A program made the position numbers and the translations under genes. The notes under the pieces were generated by a model, which worked only from the letters and a program-made list of their open reading frames with translations, did not search any database and was not told where the DNA came from. Below, piece by piece: positions 1 to 11,987 of a stretch of 12,841 nucleotides of DNA. Each line of letters begins with the position of its first letter. Position 1 is the first letter of the stretch. The stretch comes from Candidatus Aenigmatarchaeota archaeon (GTDB taxonomy: Archaea; Aenigmatarchaeota; Aenigmatarchaeia; CG10238-14; SpSt-28). The stretch spans positions 1-12,841 of the forward strand of contig JAVVFY010000014.1 in assembly GCA_032249395.1 (NCBI GenBank), written 5' to 3'.

Positions 1-684
1 TGTTTTAAAAACCTTAATGTATTTTTGATTAAGACGACTAGCTATAACCCTTAAGTCATTTTCCAAAATTTTCAATTCTTTTTCCTTCTCTGACAACAAA
101 GTAGAGAATTTATGAAGTTCTTCTTTTTGTTTTTGTATCAAAGCAAGTTCTGTTTTGGCTTTTTCCAATTTTTTTTCAACAACTTCTTTTTCCTTTTTCA
201 AATTATAAACCTCTACTTTTAATCTGCCTAATTCGTTTTCTTCTTTTGAAATTTCTGAAATAATCCTATTCAAAACTTCCTGCTTTTCCTTTAAAATATC
301 CAACTCCTTTAAAAGTTTTTCTTTTTCCCTTTTAAAGAACTCTATCTCAGACTTTAGAAAATGAATTTCTTTTAAGGCAACTTCTTTTTCCTGTTTTAAT
401 TCTCTTAGCTCTTGATTTAGTTGAGAAAGAAGTAATGTATTACTTTGAATTTGACCCGATATTTTTTGAAGTTGGCTTTCTAATTCTCGTCTTCTTCTTT
501 CTAATGCTTCTATCACAGCCCTAAGATCTCTTGTTTTTAATTCCTTCAAATCATCAAATTCTTTCTTTTTATTCTCAATTTTTTGCTCTAAATCTCTAAG
601 TTCTTTATTTCTTTGCTCTATTTGAGAAACTATAGAAGCAAGGTCATTCTGTAAAGCAATCAAATCTTTTTTAAAGACTTCCAT
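1..684 (-). CDS. Long coiled-coil protein, 3' end outside the window (>=228 aa; MEVFKKDLIALQNDLASIVSQIEQRNKELRDLEQKIENKKKEF...)
   Basis: Not in the ORF track because it has no stop in the window. The ATG at 684 overlaps the upstream TAA (TAATG). Manual translation stays open to position 1 and is K/E/L-rich with heptad periodicity. Confidence 0.85.
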   Translation of the reverse strand, partial: MEVFKKDLIALQNDLASIVSQIEQRNKELRDLEQKIENKKKEFDDLKELKTRDLRAVIEALERRRRELESQLQKISGQIQSNTLLLSQLNQELRELKQEKEVALKEIHFLKSEIEFFKREKEKLLKELDILKEKQEVLNRIISEISKEENELGRLKVEVYNLKKEKEVVEKKLEKAKTELALIQKQKEELHKFSTLLSEKEKELKILENDLRVIASRLNQKYIKVFKT

Positions 685-935: not shown

Positions 936-1399
936 TAGTTTGTTCTAAGAGCTAAATGAAATTCGGTTATCGAACTTCCAGTATTTGTTCCGCTAACACT
1001 TGAAACTACTATTCTAATACCATCACAGGGAGGAATGGGAAACTCATATTGATATCGACCATTAGGAATATCTGTATTATTCAAAACCAAAGTCATTGGC
1101 TTTAATACCTGCTGTCCTCCTTGAAATGTTGAAGCAGTTTGTTGATAAGCCTGATTATTTCTGTAGAAACTAATTGTTAAAACTATTTGTGTTAAGGAAC
1201 CATAAGTAAGATTAAAACCCAATGTTCCCTGACTATTACTTCTTAAAGCATCAAGATAAGCCAATCTAATGTTTTCGTCAAAAGAAGGAGAAGAAGAGGA
1301 GGGAGATAAATCTAACAAAACAGCATTAGCAGTAACTGGAGATAAGTCATTCCCTTTAATAACTGTTTGTGAAGATGGATAAGTAATGGTAGTAGCCAT
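935..1399 (-). CDS. Hypothetical virion structural protein (beta-rich)
   Basis: 154 aa, S/T/N/Q-rich, downstream of the capsid gene, TAATG-coupled to both neighbours. Confidence 0.6.
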   Translation of the reverse strand: MATTITYPSSQTVIKGNDLSPVTANAVLLDLSPSSSSPSFDENIRLAYLDALRSNSQGTLGFNLTYGSLTQIVLTISFYRNNQAYQQTASTFQGGQQVLKPMTLVLNNTDIPNGRYQYEFPIPPCDGIRIVVSSVSGTNTGSSITEFHLALRTN

Positions 1400-1641
1400 T
1401 ATTCGGAAACTTCCTCAGAAACGACCTCTTGTTTTTTAGATGGTCTACCCCTTTTAGGTTTTTCTTCTGAAGAAACTTCTTCTTCTCCTTCTTCTTCCAA
1501 AACTAATTGAACTTTTCCTGGATAAGAAACTAAAACCCTTGATAATTGAGGTTCCTCTAATTCAACAACTTCACCAGGTTCCAAAACGATATTGAAATAG
1601 GGTTCAATAAGCCTTTCTCCTGAAATATTTTTAACTTTCAT
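1399..1641 (-). CDS. Small acidic protein following the major capsid gene, with a KRGRP (AT-hook-like) motif
   Basis: 80 aa. N-terminal VKN...LEPGEVVEL segment, acidic tail and KPKRGRPSKK. Small proteins of this type often follow capsid genes. Confidence 0.65.
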   Translation of the reverse strand: MKVKNISGERLIEPYFNIVLEPGEVVELEEPQLSRVLVSYPGKVQLVLEEEGEEEVSSEEKPKRGRPSKKQEVVSEEVSE

Positions 1642-1667
1642 CTTCCGTTAAAAGATAAAAACGACCC

Positions 1668-1715
1668 TAGATATCCCAGCCCCACCTCAAAAAGAGATGG
1701 GGCTGGGTACACCTA
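1668..1715 (-). terminator. Strong stem-loop after the major capsid gene (terminator, attenuator or mRNA 3' stabiliser)
   Basis: Minus strand CCCAGCCCCATCTC-TTTTT-GAGGTGGGGCTGGG (1675-1707) forms a 14-bp stem with one U-G pair that only works on the minus-strand RNA. It extends by TAGGTGT/ATATCTA. The U-rich tract is about 13 nt away rather than adjacent. Confidence 0.7.
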
Positions 1716-1719
1716 ACCA

Positions 1720-2733
1720 TTAATCTGTAATTATAGAACCATTTCCTTCAGAAACAACTACTCCTCTCCAGTTAAATGCTCCAACTTTCCATTCTCCATG
1801 AACATCAAAAACATAGGTTTTTGTTACATTATCAAACCAATCTTCTGCTGTAATATCTTTGAAAACTACGTGAACAATAGGAGAGTTATTTCCATCAACT
1901 AAGAACCATCTTGTGTTGCTACCACCCTGAAGAGCGCCAAGATATGGGCTTGTAACTACAATGTATCTTCCTTGAAAGATGTTAGCTACAAAGTTGTTGG
2001 TATATGGAGTATTGGGTGTTTCAGCAATCTCCATAGCTCTTCTAACTAATGCTGGAGGAACTACAAGATAAATTTGTCCTGACATATAGGGCATTGGTTT
2101 TCCTGTATCATCAACTGTATTTTGTGCCAAAAGAATAGCACTTTCTAAGGCACTAACTGATAAATCAGGAGAGGTAGCAAGAACGTTAGAACCAACTCCA
2201 CCACCAACTAATGGGTGTTGGGTAGAAGCAAACTTAACTCCATCTCCATAAGGAAAGAGTTGAGGAGGTAAGTCTGCAGGAGCAGTTCTAACATTGTTGA
2301 ACCAATCAAAAATATGCTTAGAAGCAGTTAAAACAGCATTTTGTCTAATTTTCTTTACTTCGTCTAAAGCTGCGGCGTATTCTGGACTTCTTCTTTCTAA
2401 GCTTTCTCTAGTTACCCTAATTGAACGAGCAAACTGATAAGGTTGAACTTCTGTAATTATTCCTTTGAGATATTCGGACATTGGAAATGGCTGACCTTCT
2501 GCTCTTGGTTCTAAGTAACCTACTAAACCTGTTGTATATGTTGTTTCAAGTTTTTGTCTTCCAGTAGCATTAATTCTTCTAACTAAGGGAGTAACATTTG
2601 TCATTGCATCAAATAAGGAAACAGCATCATAAAGCCTCAATTGCTCATCTCCTTGAGAATAAACTTCAAAGAATTTTGCTCTTACTCCCTCAAGAAAAGA
2701 ATCGATATAGGAAGTAGTTATAGGATTAGCCAT
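1720..2733 (-). CDS. Major capsid protein (HK97 fold, Mu gpT-like family)
   Basis: 337 aa with GDGVKFASTQHPL, LVVPPAL, SPYL...WFL and terminal NWRG motifs typical of gpT-like capsid proteins. Lies after portal, scaffold and decoration genes and is followed by a strong hairpin. Confidence 0.88.
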   Translation of the reverse strand: MANPITTSYIDSFLEGVRAKFFEVYSQGDEQLRLYDAVSLFDAMTNVTPLVRRINATGRQKLETTYTTGLVGYLEPRAEGQPFPMSEYLKGIITEVQPYQFARSIRVTRESLERRSPEYAAALDEVKKIRQNAVLTASKHIFDWFNNVRTAPADLPPQLFPYGDGVKFASTQHPLVGGGVGSNVLATSPDLSVSALESAILLAQNTVDDTGKPMPYMSGQIYLVVPPALVRRAMEIAETPNTPYTNNFVANIFQGRYIVVTSPYLGALQGGSNTRWFLVDGNNSPIVHVVFKDITAEDWFDNVTKTYVFDVHGEWKVGAFNWRGVVVSEGNGSIITD

Positions 2734-2769
2734 TGATTAAGAATTTCAGGTTAATTAAGACCTTAATGA

Positions 2770-3255
2770 TTAGAAAAGTCTTGAGCGAATTTTAACTTTA
2801 CCAACTGTATCAGAAACTTTTTCAATTAAAACAACTTCTTTGGGATAACCTGGGTCTCCTGGACCAACTCTTGTAGAAGCATCTACGTACAAACCACCCT
2901 CGTCTAAAGAATAAGTATCACCTAAGTTGTGAGTAGCAATTGAACCACTAAAATCTGCTACTAAAGTAACATCCTCATTTAATATTGCTACTCTGGCCCA
3001 ATAAGTTTTAGTGGTTGTATTATCCACCGGAGTTTCTATGCTATTTCCAGTTCCTTGACCTAAAACTTTTCCATCTTTACCAGTAAAGCCAACAATAATT
3101 CCCAAAATGTTTGTAGCACCACCAGGAGCAGGAACAACTACTCCACCATCACCAAAAACCACTGCTTGGTTAAGGTAATAAGTTGTTGAATTATCAAGTA
3201 AGAATTCTTTCTCCAAAATAAGAGAATATGAAGTTCTATCAATTTTTAAGGCCAT
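2770..3255 (-). CDS. Putative capsid decoration/cement protein
   Basis: 161 aa, G/V/T-rich beta-type sequence (QAVVFGDGGVVVPA...ILGIIVGF) located between scaffold and capsid genes. Confidence 0.6.
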   Translation of the reverse strand: MALKIDRTSYSLILEKEFLLDNSTTYYLNQAVVFGDGGVVVPAPGGATNILGIIVGFTGKDGKVLGQGTGNSIETPVDNTTTKTYWARVAILNEDVTLVADFSGSIATHNLGDTYSLDEGGLYVDASTRVGPGDPGYPKEVVLIEKVSDTVGKVKIRSRLF

Positions 3256-3284
3256 TTTTAGAATGTAAAGAATGGCGACCCAAA

Positions 3285-3926
3285 TTAGTATTCGAGAACG
3301 GGTTCGTTTCCTTTTAAGAGGGTAGATTTTTGTTCTCCTTTTCTCATTCTTGCTATAGTTTCAGGGCTAACACCCAATTGTGCTGCTTTTATTATGTCTT
3401 CCTGTGTAATTTCTGAAGTTTCAACCTCTTCTGTAGTTTCAGAGGAAAGATTTTGAGCTTTTTGAACAAATTCTTGTTTAGCAGTTTCAGCTGTTTTCTT
3501 TACATTCAAAAGTTCTTTTAATTCCTGTGGTTTAAGAGACATATAAGCAAGAAGTAATTGGTTTTCTAATTCTCCTTCATCTAAGGTGTCAGTAGCATAT
3601 TTTTGCTGCCAAACCTCAAGAACCTGTTTTTTAACATCTTCATTGGTTAAGGCAGTAAGGGTATTAGATAATTTAGCTATCACTTCACCAGCTTTTGCCA
3701 TTTTATAAGCCTCAAACTTACTTTGATCTTGTTCTCTAAGTTCTTTTATTTTCTCCCTTGTTTCATTAAGTTTGTATTTCAAAGCAGCAATAGCATCTTC
3801 TAACCCCTTCTTTTGTTCCTCATAATCTGAAACTTCTTTGGAAAGAGTTTGTTTTTTTGTCTCAAGTTCTTGAATTTCTGCTTCTAAGGATTTTTGTTTA
3901 TCTAAAAGCTCTTGTAATTCGTCCAT
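3285..3926 (-). CDS. Putative capsid scaffolding protein
   Basis: 213 aa, acidic, N-terminal coiled coil, C-terminal ITQEDIIKAAQLGVSPETIAR helix pair typical of scaffold tails. Located upstream of the capsid gene. Confidence 0.7.
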   Translation of the reverse strand: MDELQELLDKQKSLEAEIQELETKKQTLSKEVSDYEEQKKGLEDAIAALKYKLNETREKIKELREQDQSKFEAYKMAKAGEVIAKLSNTLTALTNEDVKKQVLEVWQQKYATDTLDEGELENQLLLAYMSLKPQELKELLNVKKTAETAKQEFVQKAQNLSSETTEEVETSEITQEDIIKAAQLGVSPETIARMRKGEQKSTLLKGNEPVLEY

Positions 3927-3946
3927 TTTTAGAAAAGCCCATTTAT

Positions 3947-3973
3947 TTTACCCCGCTGGCTTCACGGGGGAAA
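3947..3973 (-). promoter_or_regulatory. 5' leader hairpin of the scaffold-capsid transcript
   Basis: CCCCG (3951-3955) / CGGGG (3965-3969) stem with a 9-nt loop, extendable by TTT/AAA. Lies just downstream of the predicted transcription start (~3979). Confidence 0.45.
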
Positions 3974-3985
3974 TTGTTCGTAATC

Positions 3986-4014
3986 ATTATAAACGAGCTA
4001 TTTTGCTTTGTCAA
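3986..4014 (-). promoter_or_regulatory. Perfect sigma70-type promoter for scaffold-decoration-capsid genes
   Basis: Minus strand TTGACA (4014-4009), 17-nt spacer, TATAAT (3991-3986), in the intergenic gap. Confidence 0.85.
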
Positions 4015-4017
4015 GCC

Positions 4018-4260
4018 TCAAAAAGTTTTTCTCTTTTTAATTTTAATTGGCTGTGGTTGAGGAATTTTTACTTTGGGGACTTTAATTTTAGGAATTTTTA
4101 CTACCAATTTTTTTACGTGAGTAGGATAATGAGGAACCTTTAAAGAAGGCATTTTAGGAGCAGAAACCCTTGGCATTTGGGGCTTTTTATAAGTAAGTTT
4201 AACCATTTTGGGTTTTACACCTCTTAAAAATGGACCGACCTTATCGGTTGTAATAACCAT
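4018..4260 (-). CDS. Very basic Lys/Pro-rich small protein (possible DNA-condensing core protein)
   Basis: 80 aa with a single acidic residue and repeated K-(I/V/M)-P-K units. TAATG-coupled to the upstream ORF and preceded by GGTCG with a 21-nt spacer. Confidence 0.65.
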   Translation of the reverse strand: MVITTDKVGPFLRGVKPKMVKLTYKKPQMPRVSAPKMPSLKVPHYPTHVKKLVVKIPKIKVPKVKIPQPQPIKIKKRKTF

Positions 4261-4478
4261 TATTTTTTCTTTTTCTTTTTTCGACCAGCTTTACCTACGC
4301 CATATTTTCCATAAGCAATGGCGGCAGCTATTTGCTGTGCGTGTTTCAAGCTTCTTGGTTTATACTCCGCTCTACTAGTAGTCATTTTCCCTGTTTCCTT
4401 ATACTCCCTTAACAGAGTTTCAATTTCTTTACTTATTGCTTCTCTTTTTTTCTTAGAAATTTTTCTTTTTTTAGCCAT
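4260..4478 (-). CDS. Small basic protein reminiscent of DUF6496-like phage proteins
   Basis: 72 aa, poly-K termini, core ISKEIETLLREYKETGK...AQQIAAAIAY resembling the EFKxGKL...KQAIAIAL pattern. Confidence 0.65.
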   Translation of the reverse strand: MAKKRKISKKKREAISKEIETLLREYKETGKMTTSRAEYKPRSLKHAQQIAAAIAYGKYGVGKAGRKKKKKK

Positions 4479-4884
4479 TTTGCTTTTCTTGATTAAAAGC
4501 GACCATTTGTTTAAGTTCTTTTTTAATTTGCTGAATATTGGGAGCTTGGGGCTTTTCTTGAGGAAAAACTTGGCTTACTTCCTCTTTGGCTTCTATTAAT
4601 CTTTTTATAACTTCCCATTCGGTTACAATGGCACGAAGTTCTGAAGTATGCTTATCATCAAGCCAAGATTGTTTAAGCAAAAAATTCTGCCTTGAAGTTA
4701 TCCATTTTACCAAAAGTGGTTCCTTTTTCCCAATTCTTTTCCACAATTCTTCAGTTTCTTTAGCATCAAATTTCATTCCTTCATCATCAAAATAAGTAGC
4801 AATTCTTCTATCAATTAAATCTCTTTCAATTTCTTTATCCATTAACAATCTGATTAAAAATTTTTTAAATTGCTTCACCCACAT
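4471..4884 (-). CDS. Hypothetical protein downstream of portal
   Basis: 137 aa helical ORF overlapping both neighbours in operon orientation. Confidence 0.7.
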   Translation of the reverse strand: MWVKQFKKFLIRLLMDKEIERDLIDRRIATYFDDEGMKFDAKETEELWKRIGKKEPLLVKWITSRQNFLLKQSWLDDKHTSELRAIVTEWEVIKRLIEAKEEVSQVFPQEKPQAPNIQQIKKELKQMVAFNQEKQNG

Positions 4885-6880: not shown

Positions 6881-7220
6881 TTATTTCAATTCCGTGTTTA
6901 AATCCTGGCTTAAACCTTGTCCTTTGCCAAGTTTTTTCCAAATGGTATGCTAATGATGGAGCTTTTATAACAACTAGCCTTCTTTTAATTTCATCAACAA
7001 TAATGGGAAGTCTTTGGAAAACATCTTCAGAACTTTCAAAGGTATATGTTCCAATTATCACATTGTTCCTATAAAAAGTCAATTGTCTATTTTCTGGATA
7101 CCAAGAAGCACCAATTTTGCCATCTAGAAGTTGAACCCTTGAAACTAAATATCTAATAGCGCTTAGCATAAGTTGAAATTTTAGGTCCACCCAATGTATT
7201 ACCCTTGAAAAATACATCAA
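6870..7220 (-). CDS. Hypothetical protein between terminase and portal (start uncertain: TTG 7220, ATG 7217 or ATG 7169)
   Basis: ORF fills the terminase-portal gap and overlaps both genes. Confidence 0.6.
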   Translation of the reverse strand: MMYFSRVIHWVDLKFQLMLSAIRYLVSRVQLLDGKIGASWYPENRQLTFYRNNVIIGTYTFESSEDVFQRLPIIVDEIKRRLVVIKAPSLAYHLEKTWQRTRFKPGFKHGIEINGQ

Positions 7221-9888
7221 AGCCCAAGCAAAACATTTCGTGTGCCGACCTCAAATCTGCTTCAGGAGAAATATGTAATGGAACTATTTTCCCTTCTGTT
7301 GTTCCCTTTAAACTTCTTTCTGAAATTTTTGCTGACTTAAGAGCATCTAAAAGTCTTAAAGAACCACTATCATTAGCATTAAACTTTGTAATCTTTAGAT
7401 ACTTTTGAACTGCTCTTTTTCTGATTTCGTGAGAAGTTCCTATGTTAACTATGAGAAAATTAATGCCATTTTTCCTCAAAATTGTTTCAAAAGAGTATCC
7501 TGCTACTTGTGAAACCTGTCTATGGGCTGGTTCTCCAAAAACAATTTTGGGCTTACCCCAGCTCCTTACTTTTTCTAAAAATTCTCTTTCGTATTCATTA
7601 TACCACATTTTGTCATAAGGAATTTCAGGGTTAAGAAATGGAAGCCACCAATCTATAAGAAGTTTATTTGGCATTAACCTTCCGTGAGCAGCAATAGCAG
7701 TTAGATTTCTAATTTCGTTTTTTAATGGGTCATATTGATACCAGCATAAGGCGGTATAATCTTGGAAACCAGCGAAGTCGGCTGAAGCAAAAAGTGGTAA
7801 TTTGGGGTCAAATTCTATGGGTTCTATCTGGCATTCGTAAGCTTCAGGGTAATACCTTAGTTTAGGGTCAACATCATAAGAAAGTTCTAATTCTGCTAAA
7901 AATGATAATGGGTCTTCTTTTCTTAGTTCAAACTCTTTTTTGTACCATTCTTCGTCTTTGAATGGATGTTGTTTCCAATGTAAAGTGAAAACCTTACCTT
8001 GTTCTCTTAAGTTATCTACAAATCTTTTTAAGAATTGATTTTCTGTTGGTGTTGAAACATAGATTTTGACCTTTGAAGTATCTTGAACACTTCTTAAGCT
8101 TTCTTCCAAATATGGCCAATAGGCTAATTCATCCATATAAACAACTGAGCAATTATGAGAAACTATAAGATTAGTTACAAAGTTATGCCCTTCAACTTCT
8201 AAATCATAAGTCTCTTCGGGAGGCAATTTTTCAATTTTTCTAACATTTCTGTAATTAAACAACGAATCATACATTTCTCGTGAAGGTTTTTTATATGATT
8301 TAAAATCTGGATTTCTAAAGCAGTCACCAATTAATTCCTTTAGCTTTTCTCCTTGTTTTCCCATAATCTCTACTCTATATATGTTCGTCCCATATCTTTT
8401 ATCATATCTTTCAGTAACTGTCGCAAAAATACCCAAAGAATACAATAGATACCTAACTCCTTCTGCCAACTTTTTAGATGAAGTATGGTAAGTATATCTC
8501 AAAATTTTATTGAAAGAACTTAAGCAAACACTACCATCTCCTATCCACAAACCCCTTAAAAATGCTGTTTTTACTCTTTGAGGAGAAATGAAAATAGGAA
8601 ATGGAACTTCTTTGTCATTGGCATAATAATAACCAACCCCGAAATTTGCTAATAGTCTCTTCACAAATGAAGAATGGATATAAACGTCATAGCAAGGCTT
8701 CTTTTTAACAATTATCCTATCTTTCCAATTATGCCCCCGAAAAATTCCCTCTTCATTTTTTCTAACCGAATATTTCAATTCACCAAAATTCTTTCGCAAT
8801 AACTCTATAAACCTTTCAATAATCTTCGTGTTTGTATTTGAAAATTGAATAGTGCTACTATTTACAATACTTCCCTTTGAAATTAAAAGTCCAATCAATT
8901 CTGCCAAATCTTCATTTAAAACAGTAGGTATTTGAGAGGGGATATTATTATCAGTCGCCTTACTTTCCAGCTTTTCAATCCTGTAATAATCAGAATTTAT
9001 CAATTGAGGGATTTTTCTTACATCAAAAATTTTTACTTTGTCTCCAACTTTCAAATCTTTTAGGGGAACCCAAATTTCTTTTTTGTTTCTTAAAACCTTT
9101 ACGGGATGGTCTTTTGTTCCCTTCAGAACAATATTACCCCCTAATCTGACTTTTATGATTTCTTCTGGGGGCAATTTAATATACCTCAAAATTTTCTTTT
9201 TCTCCCCATTTTCGTCAATAACATATGGATACATTTCATCAACAATTTTCTTAATTGGCATAAATCCCTTGTCAGTTAAGACTAAAGTATCACCAGTAAC
9301 ACATCTATGACCCCTCCCGAAGTTAGGATTAGCACTTTCTCCGTATAATACACTTCCATTTTCAGGATTGATTAACTTCATATGATTGTCGTGAAATTTC
9401 TTTTTGAAGTTTTTAGGGAAAAGCCATTTAGGTTGAGCATAAATAAGATATCTTATCTTGCCAAATATAGAACTTATGGCCTTATTATCAACTTCCACTT
9501 CTTTTCTTGAACCTATAAGAGCTGAAAATTTTTCTGTAAATAGCCAATGATAAACGAGCCAATGAACTATGGTCCAAGTAACTCCCATATCTCTTGATTT
9601 TTCTATATAAAGAACATCACCATCGTAAAATGCTTTTTCAAGTCTATAAATCAAATCTGCTTGATAGTCAAAGGGAACAAAAATAATATCTGGTTCTTGA
9701 ATGTTTCTTGGTTCATATACCCAACCACAGATTTCTATCCATTTGTAGATGTTTTTCTGAAATTCTCGGTAAAGATAAACTCTTGCTTCATAAGAAAGTT
9801 CGGCAGCTCTCAAAAGCTCAAATCTTGTATCGATATATTTCTGATATTCTTCTGATTTAAGATATTCTTGAAGTTTTTCTAGGTTCAT
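7153..9888 (-). CDS. terL: Terminase large subunit containing an intein (911-aa precursor, ~527 aa spliced)
   Basis: Adenine-binding FDYQ, Walker A EKSRDMGVTW, GRG motif then Walker B VVYMDE, coupling motif VSTP, and a C-terminal RNase H-like ASADFAG...D region. Confidence 0.93.
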   Translation of the reverse strand: MNLEKLQEYLKSEEYQKYIDTRFELLRAAELSYEARVYLYREFQKNIYKWIEICGWVYEPRNIQEPDIIFVPFDYQADLIYRLEKAFYDGDVLYIEKSRDMGVTWTIVHWLVYHWLFTEKFSALIGSRKEVEVDNKAISSIFGKIRYLIYAQPKWLFPKNFKKKFHDNHMKLINPENGSVLYGESANPNFGRGHRCVTGDTLVLTDKGFMPIKKIVDEMYPYVIDENGEKKKILRYIKLPPEEIIKVRLGGNIVLKGTKDHPVKVLRNKKEIWVPLKDLKVGDKVKIFDVRKIPQLINSDYYRIEKLESKATDNNIPSQIPTVLNEDLAELIGLLISKGSIVNSSTIQFSNTNTKIIERFIELLRKNFGELKYSVRKNEEGIFRGHNWKDRIIVKKKPCYDVYIHSSFVKRLLANFGVGYYYANDKEVPFPIFISPQRVKTAFLRGLWIGDGSVCLSSFNKILRYTYHTSSKKLAEGVRYLLYSLGIFATVTERYDKRYGTNIYRVEIMGKQGEKLKELIGDCFRNPDFKSYKKPSREMYDSLFNYRNVRKIEKLPPEETYDLEVEGHNFVTNLIVSHNCSVVYMDELAYWPYLEESLRSVQDTSKVKIYVSTPTENQFLKRFVDNLREQGKVFTLHWKQHPFKDEEWYKKEFELRKEDPLSFLAELELSYDVDPKLRYYPEAYECQIEPIEFDPKLPLFASADFAGFQDYTALCWYQYDPLKNEIRNLTAIAAHGRLMPNKLLIDWWLPFLNPEIPYDKMWYNEYEREFLEKVRSWGKPKIVFGEPAHRQVSQVAGYSFETILRKNGINFLIVNIGTSHEIRKRAVQKYLKITKFNANDSGSLRLLDALKSAKISERSLKGTTEGKIVPLHISPEADLRSAHEMFCLGFDVFFKGNTLGGPKISTYAKRY
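8152..9303 (-). mobile_element. Intein with LAGLIDADG homing-endonuclease domain (384 aa, precursor residues 196-579)
   Basis: Block A CVTGDTLVLT, block B GTKDHPV, block C LAELIGLLISKGS, block E FLRGLWIGDGS, block H LAEGVRYLLYSLGI, blocks F/G TYDLEVEGHNFVTNLIVSHN followed by +1 Cys. Confidence 0.95.
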
Positions 9889-10596: not shown

Positions 10597-10854
10597 TTAA
10601 GACTTATTATCTGGTTTTAGAACCACTAGAACATTGGCATCGAACTGATATTTGCCCATAATTTTTATAATTCTTCGGAGAAGTTTCATTGTTCTTCCTT
10701 TTCTACCCAATATTTTTCCCTTGTATTCACCAGCACAATCTATCACAACTTCTAATCCTTTTAGGGTTTGTTTTGAAGTTAAGCTTACATCTACTCCAAA
10801 AACTAACTTGATTAAGTTCTTAATTGCTTGTTCTATTTGACTAACTTCTGTCAT
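10597..10854 (-). CDS. khpA: KH-domain RNA-binding protein (KhpA/UPF0109-like)
   Basis: 85-aa single domain with GKILGRKGRTMKLLRRII, matching the KhpA signature GKVIGKxGRTxxAIR (GxxG loop), and similar size and layout. Confidence 0.8.
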   Translation of the reverse strand: MTEVSQIEQAIKNLIKLVFGVDVSLTSKQTLKGLEVVIDCAGEYKGKILGRKGRTMKLLRRIIKIMGKYQFDANVLVVLKPDNKS

Positions 10855-10865
10855 CTTTCATCTAA

Positions 10866-10895
10866 ATTATAAATACACTTTTTCTTATTTGTCAA
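10866..10895 (-). promoter_or_regulatory. Consensus sigma70-type promoter for the KH-terminase-portal operon (near-leaderless)
   Basis: TTGACA (10895-10890), 18-nt spacer, TATAAT (10871-10866). The ATG is only 11 nt downstream of the -10 box. Confidence 0.75.
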
Positions 10896-10919: not shown

Positions 10920-11987
10920 ATGAAAGACATAGAAGAGTTCAAAAATAAAATAATATGTGGCGATAGTTTCAGTATTTTAAAAAAAATTCCAGACAATTCT
11001 ATTGATTGTATTATAACTTCTCCTCCTTACTGGTCCTGCCGTTCTTATTTGCCAGAGACTGATGAAAACAAAAAATTTGAAATAGGCCTAGAAGACCATC
11101 CACAAGAATACATTGACAAAATTGTGGAAATATCTTTGGAATGTATAAGAGTTCTTAAAAAAACTGGAGTTTTTTTTCTAAATTTAGGAGATGTTTTTTA
11201 TACTTCGTCTCATCAAGGGGGAACAGACAGATTAAATAAAGAATTCAACAAAATCTATAACCACAGAGTAAATATAAGAGGCAAATATAAAGATAATTGG
11301 CTTCAACAGAAAGGAAGATTGTTATTACCAATGAGAATAGCAATAGAACTCCAAAATAGGGGAGTAATAATCAGAGATGTTATTATTTGGGCTAAAAAGA
11401 TTACTAAATACCCCGAAAAAACATCAATAGGAACTGCAATGCCATTTCCAGTTAGAGATAGACTTTTACATGCTTTTGAATATATTTTCCAAATTGTTAA
11501 GTCTAAAAAATATTACTTTGACTTATCTCAAATTAAAACTCAAATTAAAAGAAGTTCTAGCTTAAGCCATCAAAATCCTATGGTAGAAGCTTATAAAGAG
11601 GATAATCCACATAAAAAAACTATGGCTGAAGTAGAAAAATTTAGAAAAAGATATTCTATAGCTTCTCAAGTAAAAAATTGGAATATTCAGCTTTCAAAAG
11701 AACTAAGTGGAGCAAATCCTACAAATGTTTTAATGTTTAAGGTTGAAAATCAATATTCAGTTCCCTCTGGACACTATGCTAAATTTCCTACTTCATTAGC
11801 AGAATTCTTCATCTTAGCAGGATGTCCTAAAGACGGAATTGTTTTAGACCCATTTTGTGGGAGTGGAACTACTTGTGTAGTTGCTAAAAATTTAGGAAGA
11901 AACTATATAGGAATTGACTTAAATCCTAAATATTGTGAAATTGCTGAAAAAAGATTAGAAAATACACAATCTCCGTTAGCCCCCTAA
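10920..11987 (+). CDS. Orphan beta-class amino (N4-C/N6-A) DNA methyltransferase
   Basis: N-terminal motif IV IITSPPY and C-terminal motif I VLDPFCGSGTT, plus H-x-A-x-FP and IGIDLNPKY. No restriction endonuclease is adjacent in the window. Confidence 0.93.
   Translation: MKDIEEFKNKIICGDSFSILKKIPDNSIDCIITSPPYWSCRSYLPETDENKKFEIGLEDHPQEYIDKIVEISLECIRVLKKTGVFFLNLGDVFYTSSHQGGTDRLNKEFNKIYNHRVNIRGKYKDNWLQQKGRLLLPMRIAIELQNRGVIIRDVIIWAKKITKYPEKTSIGTAMPFPVRDRLLHAFEYIFQIVKSKKYYFDLSQIKTQIKRSSSLSHQNPMVEAYKEDNPHKKTMAEVEKFRKRYSIASQVKNWNIQLSKELSGANPTNVLMFKVENQYSVPSGHYAKFPTSLAEFFILAGCPKDGIVLDPFCGSGTTCVVAKNLGRNYIGIDLNPKYCEIAEKRLENTQSPLAP

Follow-up and report, generated by a model that had tools for sequence, protein, structure and literature searches.

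The 12,841-nucleotide (nt) contig JAVVFY010000014.1, analysed here at its full length and called the window, makes up the whole of contig C14 in the 25-contig, 752,806-base bin of Candidatus Aenigmatarchaeota archaeon (GCA_032249395.1). Nearly all of its genes lie on the minus strand, and the pentamer GGTCG recurs on that strand at a short and nearly fixed distance ahead of start codons. Comparison with related genomes suggests that GGTCG probably belongs, as the conserved core, to a promoter-like DNA element that only one family of low-GC tailed phages, with genomes of ~42-48 kb, possesses. The original prediction, made from the letters of the window, had taken the pentamer for a site of ribosome recruitment and had named a promoter or processing element as the alternative; it is towards this alternative that the sequence evidence points.

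Plus-strand CGACC, the reverse complement of the motif, occurs eight times in the window (at 1056, 1422, 1662, 3276, 4236, 4282, 4500 and 7246) against 2.42 copies expected from dinucleotide shuffles (at least eight in 2/200 shuffles). Plus-strand GGTCG is absent from the window. Five of the eight copies precede the minus-strand ATGs at 1399, 1641, 3255, 4260 and 4478, with spacers of 22, 20, 20, 21 and 21 nt. The coordinates and the five spacers of the original prediction were exact on re-check, and its tally of about eight CGACC and no plus-strand GGTCG, with five of the eight at a near-equal offset, was confirmed. The 1024 5-mers were then ranked by the maximum number of copies falling inside any 3-nt-wide spacer window ahead of the 15 gene starts. 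GGTCG came top with 5/8, the runner-up being AAAAA with 3 of 145 copies. In 200,000 random placements of eight sites none reached five, and the maximum of four was seen once.

The window is one part of a ~42-kb tailed phage, of which two complete relatives are available. The first (G1, or G001) is a 41,736-base viral record, part of which matches the window at 99% identity. The second (G2, or G002) is a 42,326-base record with terminal repeats and is 85% identical to the window, as is an 8.5-kb fragment (G3, or G003). Three further relatives, L027, L105 and L107, have the same order of head genes as the window phage, with identities of 52%, 44% and 42% in the large terminase (TerL) and of 25-60% in structural proteins. 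The copies and variants of the motif in the window, together with their state in these relatives, are as follows:

1056..1060, minus strand: GGTCG copy, intragenic; GGTAG/GGGAG in relatives, not conserved and probably there by chance
1422..1426, minus strand: GGTCG box 22 nt before ATG 1399 (gene of 154 amino acids (aa)), inside the upstream coding sequence (GAG-GTC-GTT); GGTCG unchanged in G2 and G3 despite altered flanks; orthologues have AGTCG (L105), GGTCG (L107) and AGTCG (L027)
1662..1666, minus strand: GGTCG box 20 nt before ATG 1641 (80-aa gene), intergenic and adjoining the post-capsid hairpin
2758..2762, minus strand: GGTCT variant with TAATTAA, 24 nt before the capsid ATG 2733; GGTCT kept in G2; capsid orthologues have GGTCT (L107), AGTCG (L105) and GGTCG (L027)
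3276..3280, minus strand: GGTCG box 20 nt before ATG 3255 (161-aa gene), in a 29-nt intergenic gap
3994..3998, minus strand: degenerate box GCTCG (GGTCG in G1, G2 and G3), 2 nt upstream of TATAAT; at -19 to -15 for a transcription start 7 nt past the hexamer
4233..4240, minus strand: GGTCGGTCC, in which the eighth CGACC (4236-4240) overlaps a conserved GGTCS core (4233-4237); the core lies 25 nt before the in-frame internal ATG 4206 and reads GGTCG in G2 and G3, GGTCC in the window and G1
4282..4286, minus strand: GGTCG box 21 nt before ATG 4260 (80-aa gene), in the upstream coding sequence (GGT-CGA, a rare Arg codon)
4500..4504, minus strand: GGTCG box 21 nt before ATG 4478 (72-aa gene), in the upstream coding sequence (ATG-GTC-GCT); the L027, L105 and L107 orthologues all have GGTCG 20-24 nt upstream
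7246..7250, minus strand: GGTCG copy 25 nt ahead of TTG 7220; GGTCA in G2 and G3, not conserved and probably a chance occurrence
10600..10604, minus strand: AGTCT variant with TAATTT, 22 nt before ATG 10577 (230-aa gene); kept in G2

The distances originally given for the GGTCT ahead of the capsid gene and for the GGTCG ahead of TTG 7220 were both confirmed. The second of these copies is correct in position, and its replacement by GGTCA in relatives that are 85% identical argues against its being a genuine element. Frame arithmetic bears out the three codon contexts that had been read inside upstream genes (GAG-GTC-GTT, GGT-CGA and ATG-GTC-GCT), and these coding copies use codons that are rare in the phage, GTC making up 8% of Val and CGA 6% of Arg codons. 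The analysis supports the claim of a cis-element with a set position and strand that is under selection even within overlapping coding sequence. That the starts are without Shine-Dalgarno (SD) sites held for 14/15 window starts, which have no 4-nt SD core within 20 nt, the exception being start 1399 with GAGG 13 nt upstream. In the complete relatives, GGAG/GAGG ending 3-13 nt ahead of the ATG was found for 3/50 G1 genes and 3/51 G2 genes. GGTCG itself was rejected as an SD site, having no complementarity to CCUCC and lying 16-28 nt from the start.

In a TerL search 959 proteins scored E <=1e-10, and five related phage genomes were examined. Positional enrichment was present in all five, GGTCG or overlapping words being the most enriched 5-mers 15-30 nt upstream of called genes in each. 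GGTCG was found at this distance ahead of 15/50 genes in G1 (0.23 expected), 13/51 in G2, 4/14 in L027, 8/30 in L105 and 13/39 in L107; for the relaxed form RGTCK the numbers were 19/50, 18/51, 5/14, 17/30 and 18/39, respectively. Orientation is equally biased. G1 holds 24 copies and G2 27, of which 24 and 25 are co-directed with the local genes, and across the related genomes 89/92 copies point towards genes, where the expectation for the gene strand is 18.8 (first-order) to 23.3 (second-order). Moreover, the antisense form (the reverse complement on the gene strand) is depleted, with 3 observed against 11.5-15.9 expected. Chance was ruled out by the random placements, the enrichment in five genomes and these orientation counts. 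Many copies have a fuller form, aaAGGTCG-NN-AATTAAAAA, followed by an A-rich run and then the ATG. The spacer to the ATG is 19-28 nt in G1 and 16-28 nt across the family. L027, L105 and L107 carry AAAGGTCG, AGTCG or GGTCT 16-28 nt upstream of starts, including those of orthologues of window genes, and the motif thus precedes orthologous structural genes in phages whose proteins are merely 25-60% identical.

The motif is absent from L108, a more distant phage of higher GC content, and L035, likewise more distant and of higher GC content, has plain SD sites in its place. Enrichment in the candidate host genomes, which would be expected of a signal used by the host at large, was not found. The rest of the archaeal bin contains 142 copies without positional preference (1/142 lies 15-28 nt before an ORF (open reading frame) start), and in the Patescibacteria bin that holds L027 AAGGTCG is not over-represented (31 copies against 65 for the reversed control). 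Since neither candidate host bin has a positional signal, the signal belongs to the phages and not to the hosts, and a host-wide translation signal was rejected. The titles and abstract openings returned by a full-text literature search held nothing on the GGTCG motif or on promoters of Patescibacteria phages.

Conservation around the box was profiled over 26 G1-versus-G2/G3 site pairs, a further 22 comparisons having no alignment that spanned the motif. Identity was 0.88/1.0/0.96/0.92/0.92 at the five bases of GGTCG, 0.62/0.65 at the following two bases and 0.92/1.0/1.0 at the three bases further on. Because conservation dips at two bases and then recovers, the element is bipartite, consisting of GGTCG, two free bases and an A/T block. 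In general form it reads (A-rich)-GGTCG-NN-(A/T-rich box; WAATTAA in the window phage), directed at the gene and placed 16-28 nt before the ATG. Over 60 sites the block 2 nt past GGTCG is A/T-rich and conserved, its position 6 being A in 57% and T in 20%.

The register of the two parts can be read from a composite site ahead of a scaffold-like gene (ATG 3926), which has the arrangement cTTGACA-N10-GGTCG-TT-TATAAT in the window, G1, G2 and G3. The 12/12 sigma-70 hexamer positions are invariant in the four genomes and the first ten spacer bases vary; GGTCG is retained in G1, G2 and G3, and the window reads GCTCG. Here the box stands 2 nt upstream of a perfect -10 hexamer, which is the register that it has with the A/T block elsewhere. 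Between this box and the ATG, 67 nt away, lies a small conserved hairpin. Another distant copy occurs at G001 24153-24290 (L018 4153-4290), where a conserved GGTCG and its full A/T block come first, then a long inverted repeat and only after it an ATG. This copy is ~130 nt from that next ATG, its leader of roughly 110 nt contains a hairpin of -27.1 kcal/mol (z -4.5), and the stretch is a structured leader or small RNA. In the window, box 1662-1666 begins where the post-capsid hairpin ends. Two known promoter types were rejected as descriptions of the element. The -35 of a canonical sigma-70 promoter (TTGACA 16-18 bp upstream) was found across the 60 sites at the composite 3986-4014 only, and for an extended -10 (TG at -15/-14) the two adjacent bases are variable (T 50%, identity 0.62-0.65), the conserved GGTCG lying beyond them. 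The hairpins and perfect promoters of the window are:

1667..1716, minus strand: post-capsid hairpin, -38.2 kcal/mol, z -7.16, 0/200 shuffles as stable; stem conserved in G1-G3, 3' arm ending at the GGTCG box; predicted to be terminator-like or RNA-stabilising
3951..3969, minus strand: small hairpin with stem CCCCG/CGGGG and loop GAAGCCA, located in the ~50-nt leader ahead of the scaffold-like gene; sequence invariant in four genomes, energy not above shuffles (z 0.06)
3986..4014, minus strand: perfect promoter of sigma-70 type, TTGACA-17-TATAAT, upstream of the 213-aa scaffold-like gene; 12/12 matches, the spacer holding the box position
10866..10895, minus strand: perfect promoter of sigma-70 type, TTGACA-18-TATAAT, upstream of the KH-domain gene (ATG 10854); heads a long rightward-equivalent gene block; G2 has TTGACA-17-TATAAT there

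The leader hairpin at 3951-3969 has an invariant loop region, GTGAAGCC. Matching loop words are found in a second hairpin at about 7985-8020 of G001 (minus strand), GAGCT-GTGAAGCCC-GAGCTC with a T-run, ahead of a 120-aa gene. The two may represent a recurrent protein-binding or terminator hairpin.

We propose that a bacterial RNA polymerase with a specificity factor would start transcription a few bases before each ATG. A candidate for this factor would be a phage-encoded protein, or else a sigma domain reading the 'extended -10' region. Were the A/T block to serve as the -10 hexamer, transcription would start ~7 nt after the block. This start would place GGTCG at about -19 to -15 and give A-rich leaders of roughly 1-11 nt, free of SD sites. 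A promoter with so short a leader would make sense of the constant spacing to the ATG as well as of the missing SD sites, and a promoter would also account for conserved copies far from any ATG and for the avoidance of antisense copies. Further support for such a promoter may be seen in the structured leaders that follow the conserved copies 67 and ~130 nt from the ATG, in the box placed directly past the -38 kcal/mol hairpin, in the conserved bacterial sigma-70 promoters of G1 and G2, and in the confinement of the positional signal to the phages.

Several observations weigh against a promoter. A -35-like hexamer (at least 4/6 matches) accompanies 15/60 GGTCG sites (25%) as compared with 14.8% of random positions, the final T of a -10 hexamer is usually missing from the A/T box, and information content outside GGTCG is low, at most 0.4 bit per position over the 60 sites. 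Searches of the 50 G1 ORFs with Pfam, PHROGs and NCBIfam gave no sigma factor, no RNA polymerase and no other obvious reader. A canonical sigma-70 promoter heads each G1/G2 gene block, so that the GGTCG copies could act in polycistronic RNA, and a promoter before one third of the genes would be unusually dense for a 42-kb phage. Every G1 ORF was also without a D.D.D metal motif. An Atlas look-up assigned the 216-aa early protein as a trypsin-like protease and gave no name to a 200-aa protein.

The phage has the features of a tailed bacteriophage of a bacterial host, namely an HK97-type capsid, TerL, a PG_binding_1 lysin, a holin and five sigma-70-type promoters. Perfect TTGACA-16..18-TATAAT promoters number two in the window, four in G001, four in G002 and one in the other 740 kb of the bin, and Markov simulations give an expectation of 0.0095 per window. 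The five sigma-70-type promoters, in which one variant base per hexamer is allowed, are conserved between G001 and G002 and head strand blocks. In two cases the hexamers end 4-9 nt before the first ATG, which would yield leaderless-type messages, and in one case the distance is about 35 nt, to an ATG with a perfect AAGGAGGTG site. Perfect SD sites behind a leader of roughly 35 nt suggest that the host ribosome can use SD where a leader exists. The only two genes with a perfect AAGGAGGTG SD encode an SbcD-like exonuclease and a trypsin-like protease (G001 39934-41509; L025 3934-5509, minus strand).

By its own markers the bin is archaeal. The archaeal model gives its 16S gene, which carries insertions, 1004.9 bits and the bacterial model 715.8 bits; the bin encodes TBP, and sigma-70 region 2 was not found in it. 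One insertion of ~80 nt, near the 3' end of the 16S gene (480-560 of L001, bin contig C13, minus strand), contains CGACC; pairing of GGTCG with it was rejected, since the bin probably does not represent the host and the motif is missing from its genes. On the promoter profile derived from the bin, phage genes had a median of -1.72 bits with 0/50 above 3 bits, compared with +1.05 and 15% for held-out bin genes. The phage genes score on it like random sequence, and membership of the archaeal B recognition element (BRE)/TATA class was therefore rejected. No close capsid relative was found in 370 other genomes of the archaeal phylum, which gave two weak matches of 23-24% identity. A BLAST comparison of G1 and G2 with the remainder of the bin returned no spacer-like matches, but just contigs C22 and C24, a domain match on C8 and short matches of 19-56 nt (E >=0.014). 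The C8 match involves a LamG and DUF2341 surface-protein gene (C8 33662-35293; L187 4662-6293, minus strand) at the end of a true archaeal contig, adjoining diphthamide synthase. It is similar to the C-terminal part of a G002 tail gene over 213 nt at 79%, and at 37-45% over ~300 aa of protein. This similarity could stem from an exchange of genes or from a common pool of domains, and it speaks against mis-binning of the phage contigs. Against a bacterial host stand this C8 stretch, the archaeal binning, a 39%-identical TerL labelled as from an Aenigmatarchaeota metagenome-assembled genome (MAG) and a weak match to an Hjc-like resolvase. By gene content and promoters a bacterial host, possibly Patescibacteria, is much more likely, and because these point to bacteria the phage contigs were probably mis-binned. 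The Patescibacteria-type host named in the original prediction is plausible, in that a scan of the genome collection with a 14-sequence TerL alignment placed the nearest relative (TerL 52%) in a Patescibacteria bin, although the bin of the window itself is archaeal.

The alternative that stays closest to the original prediction is a signal at the RNA level, and we regard it as unlikely. GGUCG would act in polycistronic transcripts from a few sigma-70 promoters, either as a protein- or ribosome-binding site that enables SD-less internal cistrons, with the KH-domain protein as candidate binder, or as an endonuclease processing site that yields mRNAs with short leaders. Every GGTCG copy is indeed downstream of a co-oriented sigma-70 promoter heading its strand block, the distance to the ATG varies rather little inside a single genome (19-28 nt in G1), and the starts fall into three contexts: leaderless-type after sigma-70, two long-leader genes with AAGGAGGTG, and internal cistrons with GGTCG ~21 nt upstream. 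However, by its -10 register the copy in the composite promoter lies upstream of the transcript that this promoter would make, conserved copies sit 67 and about 130 nt from the ATG, and depletion of the antisense form is neither required nor expected of an RNA signal. Moreover, the 13-nt spread of spacers across the family (16-28) is wide for ribosome positioning, and neither candidate host bin is enriched. It is the second conserved block with its register, the distant conserved copies, the antisense depletion and the missing host-wide signal that speak against ribosome recruitment as first proposed. The small KhpA-like KH-domain gene (window 10597-10854, L027 574-843, G002 40407-40595) encodes an RNA/ssDNA-binding fold and has a consensus sigma-70 promoter; it adjoins packaging genes in G1, G2, L027 and the L105 contig, and the L107 contig gave a weak match. 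Co-occurrence of this gene with the motif among relatives is, however, non-independent evidence, and Pfam gave no matches on five ORFs of the motif-less L108. That an early-expressed KH protein binds GGUCG ~21 nt upstream of internal starts, and so recruits or licenses ribosomes on SD-less cistrons, strikes us as highly improbable; if true, it would be a phage-encoded, sequence-specific translation-initiation system operating in an ultra-small-cell host.

Very unlikely, too, is a promoter of an archaeal virus, in which the host would be the DPANN archaeon of the bin and GGTCG would replace or flank the TATA box of leaderless transcripts. The window contig, C22 and C24 all lie in the archaeal bin, and in the bin genes a BRE/TATA-like signal spans -34 to -22 relative to the ATG, which the distance of the box (-27 to -21) matches. 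The Aenigmatarchaeota-labelled TerL, the Hjc-like match and the G2 tail-gene segment with 79% DNA identity to C8 speak for the same view. Yet the five conserved sigma-70-type promoters fit the ATGs in the bacterial reading only, and the bin is without sigma-70; the phage has a peptidoglycan-binding lysin, a holin, a DnaG-type zinc finger and a DnaB-like helicase, with NinG in a relative; its genes do no better than random on the bin's profile; and no close capsid relative turned up in the other 370 genomes of the phylum. Unlike BRE/TATA, the box has a G/C-rich core and no TATA-like block upstream, its conserved partner being downstream and not at the TATA position. Scarcely credible, finally, is another role in DNA, be it as target of an N6/N4 methyltransferase, as packaging or replication signal, or as chance combined with codon bias. 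The window, G1 and L105 all retain a methyltransferase gene, and the sequence is non-palindromic like some methylase targets, but methylase and packaging sites need neither a fixed distance before starts nor a bias to the gene strand, chance is excluded, and the coding copies use rare codons.

Promoter boxes specific to phages are well known as a kind of element, and the promoter reading of GGTCG can be set beside several known systems. In extended -10 or '-16 region' promoters, TGn or TRTG just upstream of the -10 hexamer is read by sigma domain 3. GGTCG is similarly a short element near an A/T-rich hexamer of -10 type and a possible substitute for the -35, most sites being without a -35-like hexamer, and one copy lies within the spacer of a full sigma-70 promoter. 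It differs in not being TG/TRTG, in the two variable bases between, in lying 1-4 bp further upstream, in an AATTAA-like hexamer that is usually without the final T and in being confined to phages. T4 late promoters (TATAAATA) are read with gp55/gp33, and phiEco32 promoters by the phage's own sigma. Like these, GGTCG has many copies, a short phage-only consensus and no -35, and stands directly before genes genome-wide; unlike them, it comes without a sigma-like or gp55-like gene in the complete genome, and the boxes precede small accessory, structural and lysis genes and so define no temporal class. Upstream translational enhancers are also known, for example the 'epsilon' sequence of T7 gene 10. 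With these and with SD sites GGTCG shares a short sense-strand element upstream of starts, in genes without SD, whereas its position 16-28 nt upstream is beyond the reach of the anti-SD tail, and its -10 register, distant conserved copies and avoidance of the antisense form set it apart. By this comparison the element appears to resemble extended -10 and minimal phage promoters functionally, while failing the defining features of these that were tested.

Among the genes of the window is a tailed-phage packaging and head module, with a KH-domain protein, TerL, a portal-sized protein and an HK97-type capsid assigned to PF25209. Beside this module lies a gene for a divergent N6/N4 DNA methyltransferase, which is retained in G1 and L105. 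TerL (7153-9888, 911 aa) carries an intein with a LAGLIDADG homing endonuclease, and the G002 TerL is intein-less and 527 aa long. Between the 230-aa gene and the terminase, G001 has 445 extra bases (11160-11604), including a 138-aa gene, that are missing from the window (about 9887); at the position of this extra gene G002 has a 123-aa gene with its own GGTCG box. Two further contigs of the bin match the phage, C22 (3,768 bases) at 98.5% identity to G001 32957-36724 and C24 at only 83.7% to G001 28605-31310, so that C24 represents a second strain. Outside the module, the complete phage encodes a papain-like lysin with a PG_binding_1 peptidoglycan-binding domain, the holin phrog_1299, a DnaG-type zinc-finger primase, a DnaB-like helicase, RNase H and an SbcD-like exonuclease, and a relative of it encodes NinG. 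Rfam and tRNA scans of the window, G1 and G2 gave no matches.

If the promoter reading is true, the GGTCG box would be an annotation key marking true gene starts, including those of small ORFs and the internal start 4206. It would outline the transcription units of these phages, and very short leaders would explain why ribosome-binding sites are missing. Phage contigs with bacterial promoters and peptidoglycan lysis genes can land in a DPANN bin, which matters for 'archaeal viruses' derived from bins. To our knowledge, the transcription and translation signals of Patescibacteria are barely known. The protein that reads GGTCG would be a new specificity determinant for bacterial RNA polymerase, possibly that of Patescibacteria.

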